Of a stretch of 64,000 nucleotides of DNA, positions 1,388 through 64,000 are shown one piece after another. A program made the translations under genes and the position numbers. The notes beneath the pieces were generated by a model. That model ran no database searches. It saw only the letters and a list, made by a program, of their open reading frames with translations, and was not told the origin of the DNA. The stretch is taken from the IMG/VR virus record IMGVR_UViG_3300046816_000078. One strand, 5' to 3'. Position 1 is the stretch's first letter. Every line of letters begins with the position of its first letter. The DNA comes from a virus.

Positions 1388-3148
1388 TTACTTAGCGCAA
1401 GTTGCGCCCCACGAATTCGCAGGACCGGCGATGTCGCATTCAATAGGAATGATAAGCCCGCTGGGCGAATGCCATTCCCAAGTCATTGCAGCCTTTACGA
1501 CTCGCATAACGTCTTCGACAATATCGATCGGGCAGCAGAACACGATCTCGTCGTGAACTGTCACTCGCACATATGGCCGCACGCTAGCAGGCAATCTAAG
1601 AATGCACTGCTTTAGAATATCAGCGGCGCAGCCCTGACCCATTAGCGCGGGTGCCTGAGTGTAAACGCGATCGGGATCGCATTTCATCAAGCGACCCCAG
1701 CCATTGTTAATCAGCCCGGCTCGCGCCTCTGCACGAATGTTCCGCTGCCAATTCATCAACGTCTGAAACTGCATTTCGCGTTCGCGGAAGTAGTCGTTAA
1801 CTACCTTCGGATCGTGGCCCTGCTTAATCAGCTTATTCTTACCCAGACCGTAGTTAGCACCGTGAGTAATAGGCTTGATCTTATCGCGGAATGCAACGCT
1901 GCCAAAGAACTTCATCGCAATCTCAGAGTGAGGATCGCGGCCATTCTCGAACAACGCCGCATAATTCCTGTCACCACTAAGCCCTGCAATTCCCCGCATG
2001 TCAACCTGGCTAAGGTCACAAGTGAATACTACCCAGCCCGGTTCACCAATGAACACATCGCGTTCGTGGTACCTCAAGCCCTTCTTACCGAATACGGTTA
2101 GCCCCGGCTTAGTAACGCTGGAACGTCCTGATGCCTGGCCCATATTGATATGGGGGAATACTCTATCACCGACTAGGTAATCGTCAACCGTCTGATAAAC
2201 CGTGCGACTGGTTGTAACGATCATCATTAGTTCAAGGACATTGACTAGATCAGGATGCAAGATATCCGTTTCGATCATTTCCCGCAGAGCGTCGGCACCT
2301 GTGGCCAGTTCTTTAGTTTCCGTAACGGGAGGATTGACAACTCCGAATGAATGCCACGCATCGGCAAGCCATTCCTTACCTTCTTGCGTTCGGAAGGGGG
2401 CCTTGAATTCTTCCCATACTTCCTTCTTGTTAGGTTTGCGCCCGGTCCAACCCAAACGGCCCAGTGGCAATCCGTAATCATTGGCCAAGGCGTGCATAGC
2501 CCGCTGCTTACGAGCCTCGGTTTGTTTAATGCGCTTAGCCAGCAATTCCTGATCGACGCGGAAACCATTCAGCGTCATTCGGCCTAGCCAAGACTCAACC
2601 TCGAATTCTCGCTTGGCATACTTCTTGCTAGGTATCCGATCGAATACCCTGTCAAACAAAGCTTGCCCTGCTACCAAATCACCTTCCAGATATGAAAGGT
2701 ACTCGGGATCGTCCAAGGGAATCTGATCTAGGCCGCCATGCTTAGCGGCCAATTCCTTAAGATTGTCGGTCTTGCCCTCGACGCCGTTATTCCGGCAGCT
2801 TTCGGTAAGGTCGTAGCGGTCCTTAGATCCGCCCACATCCCTAGCTTCTGGTGGACGCCTTAGCCTTTCGAGAACCATTGTGTCCAGTGACTTAGCGGCC
2901 AGCTTTTCCCAGTCTACTTGTTCCGGGTAATGATACGCCAGCGCCAAGCCGTCGAAACCAAAGAAGTTGTGAGCGTGAATGTACTCCGCTTTGTCCAGCG
3001 CGGGAATCAATTCGCCCTCAATATCGGCCGTAGTCTTCGGACCATTGTCGGTCATCCAACCACCGACCCTAACGAATTCGCCTACCGGGTCTTTAAATAG
3101 CTGGGAAGCGTCGTTAGTTTCAAGGTCGAATCCTACGAACTTCGGCAT
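1388..3148 (-). CDS. DNA polymerase I-like (family A) with 3'-5' exonuclease domain
   Basis: 586 aa. N-terminal exo motifs FDLETN and HNFFGFD. Polymerase motif B-like KPITHGANYGLG and motif C VTVHDEIVF. GGAGG SD. Confidence 0.9.
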   Translation of the reverse strand: MPKFVGFDLETNDASQLFKDPVGEFVRVGGWMTDNGPKTTADIEGELIPALDKAEYIHAHNFFGFDGLALAYHYPEQVDWEKLAAKSLDTMVLERLRRPPEARDVGGSKDRYDLTESCRNNGVEGKTDNLKELAAKHGGLDQIPLDDPEYLSYLEGDLVAGQALFDRVFDRIPSKKYAKREFEVESWLGRMTLNGFRVDQELLAKRIKQTEARKQRAMHALANDYGLPLGRLGWTGRKPNKKEVWEEFKAPFRTQEGKEWLADAWHSFGVVNPPVTETKELATGADALREMIETDILHPDLVNVLELMMIVTTSRTVYQTVDDYLVGDRVFPHINMGQASGRSSVTKPGLTVFGKKGLRYHERDVFIGEPGWVVFTCDLSQVDMRGIAGLSGDRNYAALFENGRDPHSEIAMKFFGSVAFRDKIKPITHGANYGLGKNKLIKQGHDPKVVNDYFREREMQFQTLMNWQRNIRAEARAGLINNGWGRLMKCDPDRVYTQAPALMGQGCAADILKQCILRLPASVRPYVRVTVHDEIVFCCPIDIVEDVMRVVKAAMTWEWHSPSGLIIPIECDIAGPANSWGATCAK

Positions 3149-3285
3149 TCCTCCGACCCCTTTTCCAGTAGTGCTGCGTAAGCCGCCATCATGCGGCGGT
3201 GTCTGCGTGACGAAATCAAGTTGAGAGTTGCGCAGATGAAATTGACCACTGCACCAATCGTAAAGACGATGATCGCGATATGCAT
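3133..3285 (-). CDS. Small membrane protein (50 aa), alternative to the 3' end of 3216-3449
   Basis: MHIAIIVFTIGAVVNFICATLNLISSRRHRRMMAAYAALLEKGSEECRSS: a TM helix plus basic tail. It ends just inside the polymerase start and conflicts with the overlapping ORF. Confidence 0.3.
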   Translation of the reverse strand: MHIAIIVFTIGAVVNFICATLNLISSRRHRRMMAAYAALLEKGSEECRSS

Positions 3286-3449
3286 AAGCTCCCCAGAGTC
3301 ACGTGACCGTCGAAGTTCCCATTGTAACGATCGATGGTACTAGTCGATCCGTCATTCTCAACTACTACAATTGTGTTAGAGAACAGGAATACTGCCGCTA
3401 CCTCATTCATGGTGGTGACCAGAAAATTCTCTTTATCACGTTCAGCCAT
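3216..3449 (-). CDS. Hypothetical protein (77 aa, internal Met of track ORF 3216-3653)
   Basis: ATG at 3449 overlaps the MazG stop (ATGGCTGA). The longer track start would lie inside the MazG gene. Confidence 0.35.
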   Translation of the reverse strand: MAERDKENFLVTTMNEVAAVFLFSNTIVVVENDGSTSTIDRYNGNFDGHVTLGSLCISRSSSLRLVQWSISSAQLST

Positions 3450-41434: not shown

Positions 41435-41495
41435 GGTAAGGGATGCTAGCAATAGCGCATTAATGACCGGGCTGGTTCGATTCCAGCGCTTACCG
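41435..41495 (+). ncRNA. tRNA-like module (T-arm plus acceptor-like stem, no canonical cloverleaf)
   Basis: GCTGG-TTCGATT-CCAGC T-arm followed by GCTTACC, which pairs with GGTAAGg 5' strand. The 28-nt interior cannot form D and anticodon arms. Confidence 0.4.
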
Positions 41496-41880: not shown

Positions 41881-41934
41881 CGGGCTAACGGTTCCTCGCA
41901 ATTTGAGGATTGGGTTCGATTCCCAATAGCTCAC
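41881..41934 (+). ncRNA. tRNA-like module within a larger hairpin-rich region (about 41806-41934)
   Basis: TTGGG-TTCGATT-CCCAA T-arm. TAGCTCA pairs with cGGGCTA. One 5-bp/7-nt hairpin (TCCTC-GCAATTT-GAGGA) lies between and there is no D-arm. Confidence 0.35.
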
Positions 41935-46594: not shown

Positions 46595-47473
46595 TTATTC
46601 GTAGAAACTCTCCGGCGTCTCAATTGGCGGAACTATCTTATGACTCTCAACGAGATCTTGCATAATCCCGGCATCACCCATAGCGCGATGATAACGCGAT
46701 GCGAGATTGCTATTAGAGCCGGGCTTTTCCTGTCCAACCCATTTGCGATCCTTGGCACTACTGCCAATACTCGGATGCCACAAATGAATTACGCCACTGG
46801 GCACAGTTTTATGCGGAACGTATAGCGTGTCTAGCGCGTGCATAAATGCTACATCCTCGCCACCCCAACCGTAGAAACGAATATCCATTTTTCCGGCAAT
46901 GGTGAAAGCTTCTTTGGGCATGATCTGAATAAGTGCGCCGAACCAGTGACCGATATCGGTTGCGGTGGATTGCTCCAATTGATATTTGGAAGGCTGCGCC
47001 GCAAAGAATCGCGGAGGGTCGGCCGGGTTAGAATTCAGAATTTCAAGTGACGCTGTTTCTGTCAATCGGTAGAAATGACGGTAAGGCATAAACCACAAAC
47101 GATTACCGCGCTTGATTTCTTTTCTGATTTCCTTAGCACAGTACTCGATTACATCACCGGCCAAATAGCAATCGGCATCGAGAATTACAATTACGTCGCC
47201 TTTAGCTTTTTCCGCTGCTTTGTTTACTGCGGCAGTTTTGCAGAAAGGAATGTGATCATCGGAGCTGACGATAATTTCCGCGCCGGGTAGTTCATTCTCC
47301 CAATAGCACCTAAGCCAATTCCAGGTTTCTGCGCGGCGTGCATTATCGGCTCGGAATGGGACTAGCAAAGAAATTCCGTGGCCAGGCTTGCGCCGCCTAT
47401 TGACAAAGACGTATGCCAGGATTATCAGGGTAATGATCATCCCGATGATTCCCGCTAGCTGTTCCCATGTCAT
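46595..47473 (-). CDS. GT-A fold glycosyltransferase (GT2 / galactosyltransferase-like) with N-terminal TM
   Basis: N-terminal TM helix. VIVILDADCY is a DxD motif. YGWGGEDVAF matches the Glyco_transf_7C-type signature. Confidence 0.7.
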   Translation of the reverse strand: MTWEQLAGIIGMIITLIILAYVFVNRRRKPGHGISLLVPFRADNARRAETWNWLRCYWENELPGAEIIVSSDDHIPFCKTAAVNKAAEKAKGDVIVILDADCYLAGDVIEYCAKEIRKEIKRGNRLWFMPYRHFYRLTETASLEILNSNPADPPRFFAAQPSKYQLEQSTATDIGHWFGALIQIMPKEAFTIAGKMDIRFYGWGGEDVAFMHALDTLYVPHKTVPSGVIHLWHPSIGSSAKDRKWVGQEKPGSNSNLASRYHRAMGDAGIMQDLVESHKIVPPIETPESFYE

Positions 47474-57701: not shown

Positions 57702-58649
57702 TAGTGATGTAAGGCAAGACGAACGGGCAGGTCGGGACTGCGGCCGAAGGATCTCTAAGTCGGGATCTCGCGGTGAGAAGTCCACCTTTGATGGTTCGTC
57801 GCAGTAAGCCGAAACGAACGGCTAACCTCGGTAGTGGGGCCAGGGTGCGATTGGGCACCGCCACGGGAAAGGTTAGCAACCATAAACTAAACCACAAGCC
57901 AAAGCGGAACACGTGGCTAAGGGAATTCGCATGGTGGATTCCCGGCCCGGCGAGGTGACTCAATGGGCTTAGCAAGTGCCAGGTCTTGTGGATTGCGGCT
58001 AGTTTCGATTGTCCATAGGGTAATCGTGTTTCGGGACTTAGCCGCGTAAGCCAAACTGAGAAAGTCCTTCTTCTTTATCTAGCTTTAGCGGCCTACGGGC
58101 ATCGCACATAGTAGAGACAGAGACTAGCTCAATGGCCGGTGATAACGGTTGTACGTGGATTGTTAGGGACGCTTAGGCTCGGGCTTCCGCCCGGATAGCA
58201 ACCGAAACAATGACGATTACGCGGGTTCGATTCCCGCATTCACCGCTAGTGCGGGCAGGCAAAGAACCGGGAGCCGTCGCTGAATGCGATAACGGCAGGG
58301 GGTTTGTCCGCACATAAAGTTGGACAATGGGAACCGTCAAGAGCCTTTAGCCATAGATTAACCCTAGGCTGGCAGCTACGGCACATAAGCGCGATAAGCA
58401 GACAGCAACCGAAAGGGCCTGTTTGCTGCCTTGCGTGAGCGGTGTTTATGAACTGTATTCAGTGGGCGAATGGTGAAAGATCCGCGTTAGAGCGGGCGCG
58501 TTTATCGCAAGGGAGCGAAGCGGTTAAAACGGCTGACAATAGCTGACGGTATCCGGGGCGTGCGCACAATCCGGGGAGAATAAATAAGACGATAGGTCGG
58601 CCCATTGTTCTCAACTCTTATCCACCACACAGCAGAAAGGACAGGCTAA
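57702..58649 (+). ncRNA. About 950-nt ORF-poor, hairpin-rich transcribed region downstream of P3
   Basis: No SD-led ORF. Contains a conserved leader (57702-57810), the tRNA-like module at 58138-58245 and long hairpins such as GTGCGG...CCGCAC at 58249-58312. Confidence 0.5.
58138..58245 (+). ncRNA. tRNA-like / tmRNA-TLD-like module
   Basis: 5' GGTGATAACGGTTGTACG resembles a tmRNA 5' end. T-arm GCGGG-TTCGATT-CCCGC followed by ATTCACC-G. Interior hairpin CGGGC-TTCC-GCCCG. No anticodon arm and no G3-U70. Confidence 0.4.
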
Positions 58650-58893: not shown

Positions 58894-59035
58894 GACCGCT
58901 GCCGATCATAGGGTTCGCGCCCGAAGCTGGCGAATGATTGGACTAGGTATCATGGGTTGCAAACCTGGCCTAGTGCGTGTATCGGATGGGTTAACACATT
59001 CGTTACGGGTTGGGGTTCGATTCCCCCAGCGGCCT
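58894..59035 (+). ncRNA. tRNA-like module with long internal irregular hairpin
   Basis: 5' GACCGCTG pairs with 3' CAGCGGCC after the T-arm GGGG-TTCGATT-CCCC. Internal helices CGAATG/CATTCG and ACTAGG/CCTAGT. Too long (142 nt) for a tRNA. Confidence 0.4.
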
Positions 59036-60313: not shown

Positions 60314-60519
60314 CACCGGATGAATCCGAATATGCCTGGGCTCATTTCGATCTAGGCTACGGCGCGGATGGTCAGTGGCGCTACGCGATAGGTGATCACC
60401 TTAGCAAGAATGCTTTTGCTAACAAGGTCGATGCCTACCGCTACGCCACTAGGCCGCAGCGTCTAACTGATGATGGTCAGCTAATCCCCGATATTAGGTG
60501 GTCGCCGGAACTCAACTAA
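60310..60519 (+). CDS. Hypothetical protein
   Basis: GTGA overlap start. 69 aa. Loosely similar to the previous product (...A.A..YA.RP). Confidence 0.5.
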   Translation: MTPDESEYAWAHFDLGYGADGQWRYAIGDHLSKNAFANKVDAYRYATRPQRLTDDGQLIPDIRWSPELN

Positions 60520-60593
60520 GACAGCCGTCCGATCGAAACTACTAGTAAACAAACCATAAAACGCAGCACAACATCCTATGGAGGATAACTACC

Positions 60594-60824
60594 ATGGCTC
60601 AGGCTAAGACTCTTACTCAGGTCGGCTCTAACGTTGCTTACAGCGTGGCCGGTTCCAAGCTTACGATCGTGGTTGACCTTGACCAGGTTGCCGACGCTCC
60701 CGCGCCCGGTAAGAAGATGAGGCAGGTCGCCAACTCGGGTGGCTTTAGCGAGCTTCCCGACGTACAGGTCGATGGGCTGAACGTGCGGCTGAATCTGTAC
60801 GCTGGCGTCTACCCGGCGCGGTAA
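60594..60824 (+). CDS. Hypothetical protein
   Basis: 76-aa ORF with GGAGGA SD. Confidence 0.65.
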   Translation: MAQAKTLTQVGSNVAYSVAGSKLTIVVDLDQVADAPAPGKKMRQVANSGGFSELPDVQVDGLNVRLNLYAGVYPAR

Positions 60825-60992
60825 GCTCTCAGATCGATTCTAAGAGCCTCACAACCTAGACCCACCCAACCCTACCAGGGATGTACCAAAGGCCGCTCAG
60901 CGTTGCTCTCAGAGCCGCACACGGCACGACAAGGCAGACGCCCCCGGTAGGGATCGATCACGAGCCATGTATGAGGCGGCTCGTGGTCGGCT

Positions 60993-61066
60993 GGTCCACT
61001 AGCTCAGTCCGGTAGAGCAGCGGGCTCTTAACCCGCGTGTCATAGGTTCAAATCCTATGTGGATCA
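60993..61066 (+). tRNA. tRNA-Lys (CTT)
   Basis: Acceptor GGTCCAC/GTGGATC, D-arm TAGCTCAGTCCGGTAGAGC, anticodon stem GCGGG/CCCGC with loop CTCTTAA. Confidence 0.85.
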
Positions 61067-61071
61067 CTCAA

Positions 61072-61144
61072 GGATCGCTAACTCAATGTGTAGAGTAACC
61101 GACTTTTAATCGGTAAGTTCTGGGTTCGAGCCCCAGGCGATCCA
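61072..61144 (+). tRNA. tRNA-Lys (TTT)
   Basis: Acceptor GGATCGC/GCGATCC, anticodon stem ACCGA/TCGGT with loop CTTTTAA, T-arm CTGGG-TTCGAGC-CCCAG. Confidence 0.85.
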
Positions 61145-61175
61145 CTTTGCTGACGCAAATAAGAAAGGAACACAC

Positions 61176-61373
61176 ATGATCCGTTATCCAGGCGGTAAGC
61201 GAATTACCGTGCATCTATCCGATGGCACCGATCGTAAGATGGTCGTGTCGCTAATCCAGATCGTAAGTGATCCATCCGGTAACGGTATCATCGCTAGGTT
61301 TGGTCGCGACGATGGTAACGGCTGGAATGAATTCCTCGCCGCTCCGCTCACAAGCATTGTCAGTTGGGACTAA
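61176..61373 (+). CDS. Hypothetical protein
   Basis: 65-aa ORF with AAGAAAGGA SD. Confidence 0.6.
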   Translation: MIRYPGGKRITVHLSDGTDRKMVVSLIQIVSDPSGNGIIARFGRDDGNGWNEFLAAPLTSIVSWD

Positions 61374-61531
61374 TGACAAGGCTGACAATCTACGGACGGT
61401 GGGCGGTTTACAACGCCGACATTAAGACAGTCGAAACTCGTCTCGATCAATTCGAGGTTGAACTAATGCCGGATGAAAGCTGGAAAGCACCGGCAGGATT
61501 TAACGTATCCGTGGTTAAGGTGAACACATGA
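61373..61531 (+). CDS. Hypothetical protein (52 aa)
   Basis: MTRLTIYGRWAVYNADIKTVETRLDQFEVELMPDESWKAPAGFNVSVVKVNT. TAATG overlap upstream and ATGA overlap downstream. Confidence 0.5.
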   Translation: MTRLTIYGRWAVYNADIKTVETRLDQFEVELMPDESWKAPAGFNVSVVKVNT

Positions 61532-61737
61532 AAGATCATCGTGTGACAGCGTGGGTTAAATTCCTGGCTAAAGTTTCCGATCGGGAATTGATCCGATACA
61601 TCACCTCATGGGAACAAGCCCTAACGTGGTACGAGATCAAAACCTATTCGCACAATTCCAATGCTCGCGCACTAGCGGGAGCGTATGAAGTGCTGGACAT
61701 TCGTGCCAGAAAGCGGGAGAAAAATGCGCGAACGTAA
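61528..61737 (+). CDS. Hypothetical protein
   Basis: 69-aa ORF coupled to its neighbours. Confidence 0.55.
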   Translation: MKDHRVTAWVKFLAKVSDRELIRYITSWEQALTWYEIKTYSHNSNARALAGAYEVLDIRARKREKNART

Positions 61738-61891
61738 TCCCTGTGAAGTAGACAGGGCCGATATCGATGGTGCTGCATCACAGGCGCTATTCGAGTCAAC
61801 CTTTCCGGCTAAGCATGTGGTTAAGTACACTGCCCCGGTTGAAGAAGTCAAACAGCTAGAGCGTGAATTGTCCGCTCTGGAAAACAAGTAG
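61724..61891 (+). CDS. Hypothetical protein (55 aa)
   Basis: Start at MRERNPCEV with GGGAG SD. Confidence 0.5.
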   Translation: MRERNPCEVDRADIDGAASQALFESTFPAKHVVKYTAPVEEVKQLERELSALENK

Positions 61892-61903
61892 AAGGGTAAG
61901 TAA

Positions 61904-62164
61904 GTGAGTCAGAGCAGGAGTCATTACCAGGAGCGGTCAGGGCTTTTCGGTACGAGCGGAAAGCTCGCCGGTATCGAGGGCCGCACGGGTCTTAGGATCA
62001 GGCAGGAAAGGCGCATTGCCAATAGCTGCACGATCACCGATGAGCATAGCCACGGGGTTTGGCTATTCGACTCCGGTCGGCGCGACCTTTCCAAGTGCAA
62101 CGGTGCCCCGTGGCCTACCGCTGCGAGCCGTAAGGCTGATGCCAGTTCGGAGGTAAGCGTATGA
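61904..62164 (+). CDS. Hypothetical protein
   Basis: 86-aa ORF with a GTG start. Confidence 0.4.
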   Translation: MSQSRSHYQERSGLFGTSGKLAGIEGRTGLRIRQERRIANSCTITDEHSHGVWLFDSGRRDLSKCNGAPWPTAASRKADASSEVSV

Positions 62165-62421
62165 TGGATGACGAATATCGCGGTTACGATCCCGCCCATT
62201 ACGCAGGAGGGGCAGAGCCGTTTGATGCTCCCATTCCCCCATTCAATCCGCCCCCGGTAAACGTGTTCCTTTCAGCGGCTCAGCTTCGCAGGCTTTTCGG
62301 CTTGCTGAATTCGCTGGACATTCACAAGGTGAAATTTACCGGCAACCTGGAATTCGACGGCCATAACTTCATGGTCGGATACGATGTTACGAACGAAGAA
62401 CACTTCGTTTCGTTCAATTAA
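62161..62421 (+). CDS. Hypothetical protein
   Basis: 86-aa ORF with GGAGG SD and an ATGA overlap. Confidence 0.6.
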   Translation: MMDDEYRGYDPAHYAGGAEPFDAPIPPFNPPPVNVFLSAAQLRRLFGLLNSLDIHKVKFTGNLEFDGHNFMVGYDVTNEEHFVSFN

Positions 62422-62439
62422 GAAAGAAAGGAAACACCT

Positions 62440-62655
62440 ATGGCCACCGATGGAAAGGCTTCTGTTCCCGAGGTAAAGGCGTATTTCGCTAGCGATGATG
62501 TTGCCGAGGATGGCACCGTCATTCGTGAAGGAAAGCCGCTCACCGCTCGGGACCTCATCGCCCTTAAGCGTGGCGAATCGGCGGAAGGTTCCGATAACGC
62601 TAACGCTTATGACGACCTGGCTATCGGTATCGGTAACGGTACCCTGACTTACTGA
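62440..62655 (+). CDS. Hypothetical protein
   Basis: 71-aa ORF with AAGGAAA SD. Confidence 0.6.
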   Translation: MATDGKASVPEVKAYFASDDVAEDGTVIREGKPLTARDLIALKRGESAEGSDNANAYDDLAIGIGNGTLTY

Positions 62656-62696
62656 CCTACTCATGGAGGGCTGCGCATTCCTTACCACGCAGACTC

Positions 62697-62849
62697 GGGG
62701 CTGAAAGGCTATCGACGTAATTCCTAATGCGGGTCCGAATCCCGCCGCGCTGATCGAGAATGAAATGGTGCTTGTCGCCTATCAAAGCGCGATCGTTTAA
62801 CAGGCAAGACTGGGAATTGCGGACTACGGTTCAATTCCGTACAGCTCCA
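62697..62849 (+). ncRNA. Miniature tmRNA-like RNA (tRNA-Ala-like domain, P2 helix, short tag-like ORF)
   Basis: 5' GGGGCTGAAAGGCTATCGACG and 3' TACGG-TTCAATT-CCGTA-CAGCTCC-A give a 7-bp acceptor with G3-U70. 9-bp helix CGTAATTCC/GGAATTGCG. Internal frame GCC...TAA (62744-62800) encodes AALIENEMVLVAYQSAIV. Confidence 0.6.
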
Positions 62850-62928
62850 CAGGTCACCCACCGTCATATCGGGACGCTGATATGATCAGGTCCGTAAGTG
62901 GGTTGCGGGTAACGACGGTTACCCTAAA

Positions 62929-63010
62929 GGGACAAGTACGCGGTGTCTCGCATTACTTAAATCCGTACATCGGCCGGTAATGCGGCAGGGTTCGATTCCC
63001 TGTTGTTCCA
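62929..63010 (+). ncRNA. tRNA-like module (acceptor plus T-arm, interior 8-bp hairpin or pseudoknot)
   Basis: GGGACAA/TTGTTCC acceptor (G3-U70), A73, T-arm CAGGG-TTCGATT-CCCTG. The interior CGCATTAC...GTAATGCG helix crosses GTACG...CGTAC. No 5-bp/7-nt anticodon arm could be found. Confidence 0.4.
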
Positions 63011-63082
63011 CTATAAGAATTCTCGGGAGTGACTAACGGGTAACCCTAGTCGGGCTATGTGTGCCTCTCCTGCTCCCGCGAA

Positions 63083-63143
63083 TGTGGCTAGGGGTTGATC
63101 TCCATTAAGCGTGGTGGCTTAGTGATGTTGATCCCCCTAGCCA
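63083..63143 (+). other. Long perfect-stem hairpin in the RNA island
   Basis: GTGGCTAGGGG...CCCCTAGCCAC (11 bp) enclosing ATTAAGC/GCTTAGT. A second long hairpin at 63285-63323 (CTCCCTG...CAGGGAG) abuts tRNA-Glu. Confidence 0.5.
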
Positions 63144-63326
63144 CTCAATTTAAAGACGTTGCAAATGGCAGTTGGGATTACGGTTTATATCCCTATCGGT
63201 AACGAGTGTCGCCCGACAATAACCGTTAAGGGCGATCACTGATGTTTGCACGCGGTGAATACCGATGCGAGATTCGGTAAAACTCCCTGGCTGATTAGCT
63301 TGATCACTAATTGGTCAGGGAGTCAA

Positions 63327-63401
63327 GGCCCTTTCGTCTAGTCAGGATTAGGATACGAGGTTTTCACCCTCGCGACACGGGTTCAAATCCCGTCGGGGTC
63401 A
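63327..63401 (+). tRNA. tRNA-Glu (TTC)
   Basis: GGCCCTTTCGTCTAG... closely parallels bacterial tRNA-Glu. Anticodon stem CGAGG/CCTCG with loop TTTTCAC. T-arm ACGGG-TTCAAAT-CCCGT. Confidence 0.85.
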
Positions 63402-63425
63402 CTATGAATTAGCAGAAAGGAAAAC

Positions 63426-63788
63426 ATGGCCAGCGTAATCTGCACAACCGCCGATAACGACGAACAGCTCTTTACACGCGGTGCGTGTTTCATTCTTGGC
63501 GTTGTTCTTCACGGCCTATCCGGCTATGAGCTTGTCGAGGTTTGCCGCCGTCACGATATCGATTGTCACATCATGGTTAAGCGTGACGATGGAATGTATC
63601 TTGATATCCGTGGCTGGCAGACAGAGGAACAGGTAAGGGAAACGTGGGGACGGAATGTCAATATCATTCCCGCTGATCTTAACGAGCTGCTGACTGAATG
63701 GCATAACCCATTCGACTCCACCGACTGCTATAGTCGAGCGCTGGAAATTGCGCAAGACCTGATAGAGGGAACATATGAAAGTGAATGA
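63426..63788 (+). CDS. Hypothetical protein
   Basis: 120-aa ORF with GAAAGGAAAA SD. Confidence 0.65.
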   Translation: MASVICTTADNDEQLFTRGACFILGVVLHGLSGYELVEVCRRHDIDCHIMVKRDDGMYLDIRGWQTEEQVRETWGRNVNIIPADLNELLTEWHNPFDSTDCYSRALEIAQDLIEGTYESE

Positions 63789-64000
63789 CATACTCCCGGT
63801 GCCCGGTGATCGTGTAGTTTGCGGTCTGCGTTTCGAGCTGCCCAAGAATGAGCGCGGCCACACATGGGCATCGCTGGGAATCGACACGCGGCACAGTGGC
63901 GCATTCGGCGCATTCGTAGACATGGAAGTCTTCGCTTGCCTGGAATGCGGAAGGGATAAGCAGAAGACGATTCACGTTCCTCGGGTCACGGTCGATGAGG
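63775..64000 (+). CDS. Hypothetical protein, 3' end beyond window
   Basis: ATG at 63775. MKVNDILPVPGDRVVCGLRFELPKNERGHTWASLGIDTRHSGAFGAFVDMEVFACLECGRDKQ... stays open to the window edge. Absent from the track. Confidence 0.5.
   Translation, partial: MKVNDILPVPGDRVVCGLRFELPKNERGHTWASLGIDTRHSGAFGAFVDMEVFACLECGRDKQKTIHVPRVTVDE

Follow-up and report, generated by a model that had tools for sequence, protein, structure and literature searches.

The 82-nt element at positions 62929-63010 (+) of the analyzed sequence, a 64,000-nt stretch of viral DNA from IMG/VR record IMGVR_UViG_3300046816_000078 (hereafter the window), is likely to be a divergent member of the phage class of tmRNAs that are confined to the tRNA-like domain (TLD), comprising the TLD and a stub of helix 2 and acting as a stable 82-nt RNA that affects rescue or translation in the host. 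The layout of an acceptor stem, a 13-nt loop with GG, a helix of 8-9 bp, a linker of 0-1 nt and a T-arm is that of the tmRNA TLD and not of a tRNA, and by this architecture and by its score against a covariance model of canonical members, the element is placed by its sequence in the TLD-only family. Judging from its acceptor sequence, it is probably alanine-accepting. The original prediction had described a tRNA-like module with a pseudoknotted interior and missed that the interior is a remnant of tmRNA helices 2a and 2b and that the element is a relative of TLD-only tmRNAs.

Read from the 5' end on the plus strand, the element begins with the acceptor strand GGGACAA (62929-62935), which supplies the G3 of a G3:U70 wobble, followed by a 13-nt D-loop analogue (62936-62948) that is unpaired and lacks a D stem and whose GG at 62942-62943 is conserved, also in one lineage of relatives (L012) where the loop is 11 nt long. 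The helix 2a-like stem of 8 bp is formed by CGCATTAC (62949-62956) and GTAATGCG (62977-62984); its first base is C, like C21 of tmRNA, in six of seven lineages, and 62948 may pair with 62985 as a ninth pair (20:57), which is UG in five lineages, AU in one and a mismatch in one. The stem is closed off by an A-rich internal loop with TTAAAT on the 5' side (62957-62962), invariant save one A-to-C change, and an invariant CCG on the 3' side (62974-62976), and by a cap hairpin, CCG-TACAT-CGG (62963-62973), which represents a helix 2b remnant and whose apical 5-nt loop differs between lineages (TACAT, TACAC, TATAT and CACGT). G62985, which ends the 3' segment of the stem (62977-62985), serves as a linker of 0-1 nt (0 if 20:57 pairs), with no GGAC linker, and leads into the T-arm, CAGGG-TTCGATT-CCCTG (62986-63002), with a 5-bp stem and a 7-nt TTCGATT loop that are invariant in the seven lineages. 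The acceptor is completed by TTGTTCC (63003-63009) and the discriminator A73 (63010), after which CCA is not encoded and CTA stands in its place. No ORF of at least 40 aa runs across 62929-63010.

The window is a tRNA-rich phage contig encoding a major head protein, portal, terminase, RNR and DNA polymerase, and its terminase is nearest to those of actinophages (33-37% identity). The phage genome is at least 96 kb long with about 20 tRNA genes, none with an encoded CCA (21 ARAGORN calls in the window, 62929-63010 not among them), and the phage looks lytic from its size, tRNA genes, RNR and DNA polymerase. Sequence, protein and pattern searches found no close relatives of the locus in GenBank phages or IMG/VR: exact-pattern scans of IMG/VR with the 3' half of the element gave no match, blastn of 62600-63450 against GenBank phages matched solely at tRNA-Glu, tblastn with the neighboring 120-aa protein gave no match, and searches for related loci with three neighboring proteins yielded one distant contig or zero. 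Homologues of this downstream 120-aa protein, 62-79% identical, were found in soil and plant metagenomes, and the contigs encoding them, plus more from one metagenome pattern scan, were used as the relatives of the window. The element was present in every related locus that reached far enough upstream and was 86-99% identical between loci, compared with merely 62-79% for the flanking protein. These copies represent seven sequence lineages of related soil-phage contigs, a narrow sample from one soil-phage group. Similarity between lineages stops after A73, past a shared C or CT, and in the 5' flank a hairpin is kept but its sequence is not. In a more distant relative (L029), whose 383-aa protein is 34% identical, a 69-nt anticodon-less RNA was found inside a tRNA array (L029:1501-1569 (-), corresponding to IMGVR_UViG_3300037466_002533 47392-47460); it has the acceptor GGGGGAU/AUCCUCC with G3:U70, A73 and a short plain hairpin in place of the capped helix.

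The minimum-energy fold of the element was the nested structure described above (MFE z-score -2.6), which in the seven-lineage alignment was 98% paired compared with 36-49% in slid controls and showed compensatory changes in 6-7 base pairs. In the acceptor stem, double changes occurred at 4:69, 5:68 and 6:67 and pairs 1-3 were invariant, giving the variants GGGACAA/TTGTTCC, GGGACTA/TAGTTCC and GGGGTTA/TAACTCC. The 8-bp helix was 98% paired, with double changes at 22:55 and 23:54 (CGC.../...GCG, CCT.../...AGG and TTC.../...GAG), and the cap hairpin was 100% paired, its third pair having changed from G-C to C-G (CCC/GGG) in three of the seven lineages and in 19 of 47 aligned members of the wider family. 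Thus the 7-bp acceptor with G3:U70 and A73, the T-arm and the 8-bp helix of the original prediction were all borne out, and G3:U70 was invariant in 7/7 lineages. Among the 47 aligned family members, G1-C72, G2-C71 and G3:U70 never varied and each of the acceptor pairs 4-7 took 4-5 pair types; an invariant G3:U70 amid covarying pairs is what selection for recognition by AlaRS would be expected to leave. Across the seven lineages, the most conserved part of the element was the internal loop with the cap. The element is a real RNA gene, beyond what chance would produce.

The wider family was collected by two restrictive scans of IMG/VR. Scan 1, which combined a cap motif taken from the element with the T-loop, matched at least 119 loci; about a third of the unique elements among the matches listed were class II tRNAs, in which it is the anticodon loop and variable arm that match the motif, and at least 38 were unique RNAs of 77-82 nt, all with a perfect 7-bp acceptor, G3:U70 and A73. 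Seven of ten of these RNAs tested exceeded the Rfam tmRNA cut-off, with 51-70 bits. Scan 2 was independent of the cap and required the canonical TLD core GGTTTCGAC, 28-50 nt, GGAC and the T-loop; it returned 63 loci with 44 unique sequences. Inspected by eye, most of these show a helix of 6-7 bp followed by an A-rich bulge and then a short G+C-rich hairpin, often GCCG-N4-CGG, while a strict regex for the cap matched 5 of the 44. Together the scans gave at least about 80 distinct RNAs of 77-82 nt (loci L046-L223), and ARAGORN made no call for those on which it was run. Like the element, they have the overall architecture, invariant GGG...UCCA acceptor ends, a capped helix 2, the T-loop GGUUCGAUUCC and, in most cases, no encoded CCA. 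The AAA bulge of the element's internal loop recurs among these RNAs and in the TLD-only RNA of mycobacteriophage DS6A. Unlike the element, nearly all have GGU(U/A)UCGAC...G(G/N)AC, and each locus had one TLD-only RNA within the stretch examined, as opposed to two in the lineage of the window phage. TLD-only RNAs are thus common in uncultured phages, many with a capped helix-2 stub, and form a sizeable and under-annotated family.

Two members of this collection deserve separate mention. At L092:6307-6462, a TLD-only RNA scoring 70.2 bits on RF00023 ends 3 nt before a tRNA gene, a spacing that fits co-transcription and tRNA-type processing. A TLD-only-like RNA at L073:3690-3766 (-) is also without the tandem of G-A pairs found in canonical members, its 8-bp Watson-Crick helix abutting the T stem. 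Its discriminator is U and CCA is encoded, and it appears to represent another variant without this tandem, independent of the element.

Family membership was scored with covariance models. R1 was a model of the element itself, and R2 derived from an alignment that had been fitted to R1, so that its 70 bits for the element are not independent and were disregarded. R3 was built solely from 18 canonical IMG/VR TLD-only RNAs, with a MAFFT alignment and the structure entered by hand. R3 gave 60.3 bits to the TLD-only tmRNA of mycobacteriophage DS6A (positive control), 38.6-51.3 bits to the mini-tmRNAs encoded upstream of the element, 37.6 bits to the element in the window and 32-42 bits to those of the other lineages, compared with 24.9 bits for the best tRNA overall and 20.9 bits for the best tRNA in the window. 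In a model search of mycobacteriophage Wildcat, scores were at most 27 bits, no higher than known tRNAs reach elsewhere.

Several other explanations were weighed against that of a TLD-only tmRNA relative. The element could be a processing or punctuation signal of a polycistronic transcript, recognized by RNase P and a 3'-endonuclease or acting as a stabilizer, with the released RNA having no function. It does lie within a long transcription unit, a simple consensus scan having found no promoter- or terminator-like sites within 60500-64000, and the same phage has four other non-canonical T-arm modules. These have paired ends and a T-loop (GGTTCGATTCC) and are not normal tRNAs (41435-41495, 41881-41934, 58154-58246 and 58894-59035); ARAGORN's call at 58154-58246 was an odd tRNA-??? 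whose anticodon has 2 nt, and the other three were left uncalled. Many tRNA-like folds thus seem to be in use in this phage. G3:U70 occurs in none of the four, and cleavage signals do not need it, yet it is invariant in the element's family (47/47) beside covarying pairs; moreover, the most conserved part of the element, the internal loop with the cap, is common to distant phages. We therefore consider a mere processing element rather unlikely.

Further RNA-like sequence was noted downstream of the element. A conserved non-coding module at 63157-63309, upstream of tRNA-Glu, had no match to an Rfam family and may be another stable phage RNA; three plant metatranscriptome runs belonging to a single study contained RNA-library contigs of 169-184 nt that match it at about 93% identity. 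Metatranscriptome contigs of relatives in three runs match small parts of the window, outside 62929-63010.

A second alternative is a degenerate or unusual true tRNA, that is, a tRNA(Ala) pseudogene, a D-arm-less tRNA or a tRNA with an intron in the anticodon loop. ARAGORN made no call on the element in default, intron, tmRNA or mitochondrial modes, and Rfam gave no match at gathering thresholds and none to the tRNA model RF00005, in agreement with the predicted absence of canonical D and anticodon arms; a conventional class II tRNA fold was likewise absent in the ARAGORN runs. When the element was searched alone in clan CL00001, its best match was the tmRNA model RF00023 over the whole model, at 10.5 bits compared with a cut-off of 47. 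With thresholds lowered to 70-80%, ARAGORN did propose a tRNA with a 4-nt anticodon or a tRNA-Pro(CGG) with an 11-nt intron, but both models depend on a D stem of GCG/CGC and on columns 54-56 being unpaired, which is contradicted by the double changes at 22:55 and 23:54 that back the 8-bp helix. The apical loop is too variable for an anticodon, the strong conservation of the element argues against a pseudogene, and R3 scored it well above tRNAs; taken together, a true tRNA is very unlikely. A reading by eye of CUUAAAU as an anticodon loop was also discarded, the motif being absent in DS6A and position 37 being C in L012.

The interior had originally been predicted to form an H-type pseudoknot, making the element a tRNA(Ala) mimic and possibly one half of a two-piece RNA with the tmRNA-like RNA just upstream. 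GTACG and CGTAC are indeed complementary in the window, and the two RNAs are always adjacent, the upstream one lying 5' of the element in 14/14 loci. Across the seven lineages, however, the crossing helix (columns 8-12 with 36-40) is 73.5% paired, with two pairs broken, in 3/7 and 4/7 lineages, and the change that compensates for G-to-C at column 37 lies within the nested hairpin and not in the D-loop, which led us to reject the pseudoknot. The constant tandem does link the two RNAs, but the two-piece form is not supported, since the acceptor stem is complete and covarying in both of them, and a permuted-tmRNA model gave only weak and partial matches (E = 0.066 and 0.66). We regard this combined reading as highly improbable. 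Three further candidate motifs noted by inspection were dropped: AGUACG as a sarcin-ricin loop, which is absent in 4/7 lineages, a k-turn, and pairing of the D-loop CGG with the CCG bulge, for which the bases are invariant, so that there is no covariation signal.

Finally, it is extremely unlikely that the element is an attP-type copy of the 3' end of a host tRNA or tmRNA gene used for integration. Genes for tRNA and tmRNA are common targets of actinophage integrases, which bring along the 3' half of their target (PMC10865867). The element, however, also has the 5' strand, which covaries with the 3' strand, and DS6A with its analogous RNA is listed as integrating at tRNA-Lys and not at tmRNA (PMC10865867). 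A lytic phage is also suggested by the size of the genome (at least 96 kb) and its content of about 20 tRNA genes, RNR and DNA polymerase.

As a divergent TLD-only tmRNA, the element differs from the canonical members mainly at the site of SmpB contact. The tandem 19-GA-20/333-GA-334 pairs are a confirmed feature of the TLD (PMC1168896), in which G19 packs on SmpB, and binding of SmpB is reported to be lost when G19 is changed to C (PMC8363625). In canonical members the order is ...GGUUUCGAC-helix...helix-GGAC-T stem (UCGAC...GGAC). The element reads ...GGUGUCU-CGC.../...GCG-G-T stem, with both GA dinucleotides gone and Watson-Crick pairs instead. Lacking the G-A pairs as well as the GGAC linker, it may not act in the canonical way.

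The upstream RNA (62697-62849 (+); RF00023, 52.1 bits) is a canonical mini-tmRNA, composed of a TLD with UCGAC...GGAC and an insert, and is separated from the element by 79 nt, confirming the predicted position of the element just downstream of a tmRNA-like RNA. Both RNAs have G3:U70, A73 and a T-arm and lack an anticodon, and they are located in one transcription unit and co-inherited. In contrast to the element, the mini-tmRNA keeps UCGAC...GGAC and has neither an A-rich bulge nor a CCG cap, a pattern that is reversed in the element, and the tip of its helix 2 varies from a 4-nt loop to an 83-nt insert. The spacer (62850-62928 (+)) has the same length of 79 nt in nine of the 14 loci and is structured, with an outer stem CACCCAC/GTGGGT, for which other lineages have compensatory variants (CACCTGC/GCAGGT, CCGCAC/GTGCGG and ATCCAC/GTGGAT), and two hairpins with GACG-containing loops. 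The contexts of GACG, e.g. AUCGACGG and AACGACGG, resemble UCGACG of the TLD D-loop.

Other conserved modules accompany this cassette. It is preceded at 62655-62696 by a conserved leader, GGAGGGCTGCGCATTCC-N-CACGCAGAC with a hairpin CTGCG/CGCAG, which is also located upstream of the mini-tmRNA in L002, L006, L012, L015 and L016 and is duplicated in L015. An additional RNA-like module of about 150 nt, not present in the window, occurs in some relatives (L002:2966-3113, L012 ~2910-3068, L016 ~2722-2868 and L019 ~3141-3316). Its ends, GGUGGAG and CUCCACC(A), pair with each other, and its interior has a long helix and, at the place of a T-arm, a hairpin GGCG-ACGCUACG-CGCC. In three lineages this module precedes the mini-tmRNA, and in L012 it separates the two tRNA-like RNAs.

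For its mode of action, we propose that the element would be transcribed within a long polycistronic transcript together with phage tRNAs and cut out of it, with RNase P cutting the 5' end, the 3' end being trimmed after A73 and a host enzyme adding CCA. AlaRS would then charge it with alanine via G3:U70 and A73. With neither an anticodon nor a tag-coding region, the charged RNA should be unable to decode or to tag. A DS6A-like molecule inhibits the cell's own tmRNA in E. coli (PMC4131195; PMC11915505), and by analogy the element most likely disturbs or redirects ribosome rescue by host tmRNA-SmpB or competes for factors that handle tRNA(Ala) or tmRNA. Loss of the SmpB-contact motif suggests that it does not simply titrate SmpB, and the near-invariant internal loop and cap suggest a sequence-specific partner of helix 2. 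On these sequence features, the element probably works through the partner of the cap and not through canonical SmpB binding.

The lineage of the window phage carries two TLD-only RNAs, the second of which has lost the SmpB-contact motif coordinately and kept its alanine identity. The opposite patterns of G-A pairs and cap in the two RNAs, with their constant tandem, indicate that they are probably non-redundant. A possible, though doubtful, origin is that they are subfunctionalized duplicates of an ancestral TLD-only tmRNA, the upstream copy keeping the SmpB core and the element keeping the cap. Were this true, the A-rich bulge and CCG cap would be a separate functional module with its own partner, and the element would be an SmpB-independent alanyl-RNA, e.g. 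a decoy, alanine donor or sensor, and not a simple SmpB sponge. Independently of this origin, the tandem offers a natural separation-of-function pair for studying what role TLD-only RNAs have in infection and whether helix 2 has one of its own.

Compared with known systems, the element has the connectivity of the bacterial tmRNA TLD as modeled in RF00023, namely acceptor, about 10 nt, P2, 1 nt and T-arm. In tmRNA, 10-13 unpaired nt separate helices 1 and 2a, and helix 2a has 8 bp starting with the conserved C21 and is followed by a variable internal loop before helix 2b (PMC1168896); in the element, 13 nt are followed by 8 bp beginning with C, an internal loop and a 3-bp stub. Alanine identity elements are present in both. 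Differently from bacterial full-length tmRNA, the element has no pseudoknots, mRNA-like domain, resume codon or tag ORF; just 28 nt lie between the helix strands, and changes there track stem pairing and not codons, for which reason a tag reading frame through the hairpin, considered by eye, was rejected.

The closest known counterpart is the TLD-only tmRNA of DS6A (JN698994.1 28478-28560; tmRNA Website 11587), the one phage tmRNA without a CDS that is listed in the tmRNA database papers PMC4131195 and PMC11915505, which scored 43.2 bits on RF00023 and 31.6 bits on R1. Like the element, it is about 80 nt long with G3:U70, A73 and a T-arm and without a D stem or tag ORF, and its lower module GAAAA-CCG-CACG-CGG-UAC has the same succession of helix, A-rich bulge, CCG-N4-CGG cap and 3-nt 3' bulge. 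The host context is also similar, DS6A being an actinophage and the terminase of the window being nearest to those of actinophages. The two differ in that DS6A keeps UCGAC in the D-loop, whereas the element has Watson-Crick pairs and a linker of 0-1 nt, and in that a model search found one such RNA in the DS6A record, whereas in the window phage a canonical TLD is followed by the element as a second copy.
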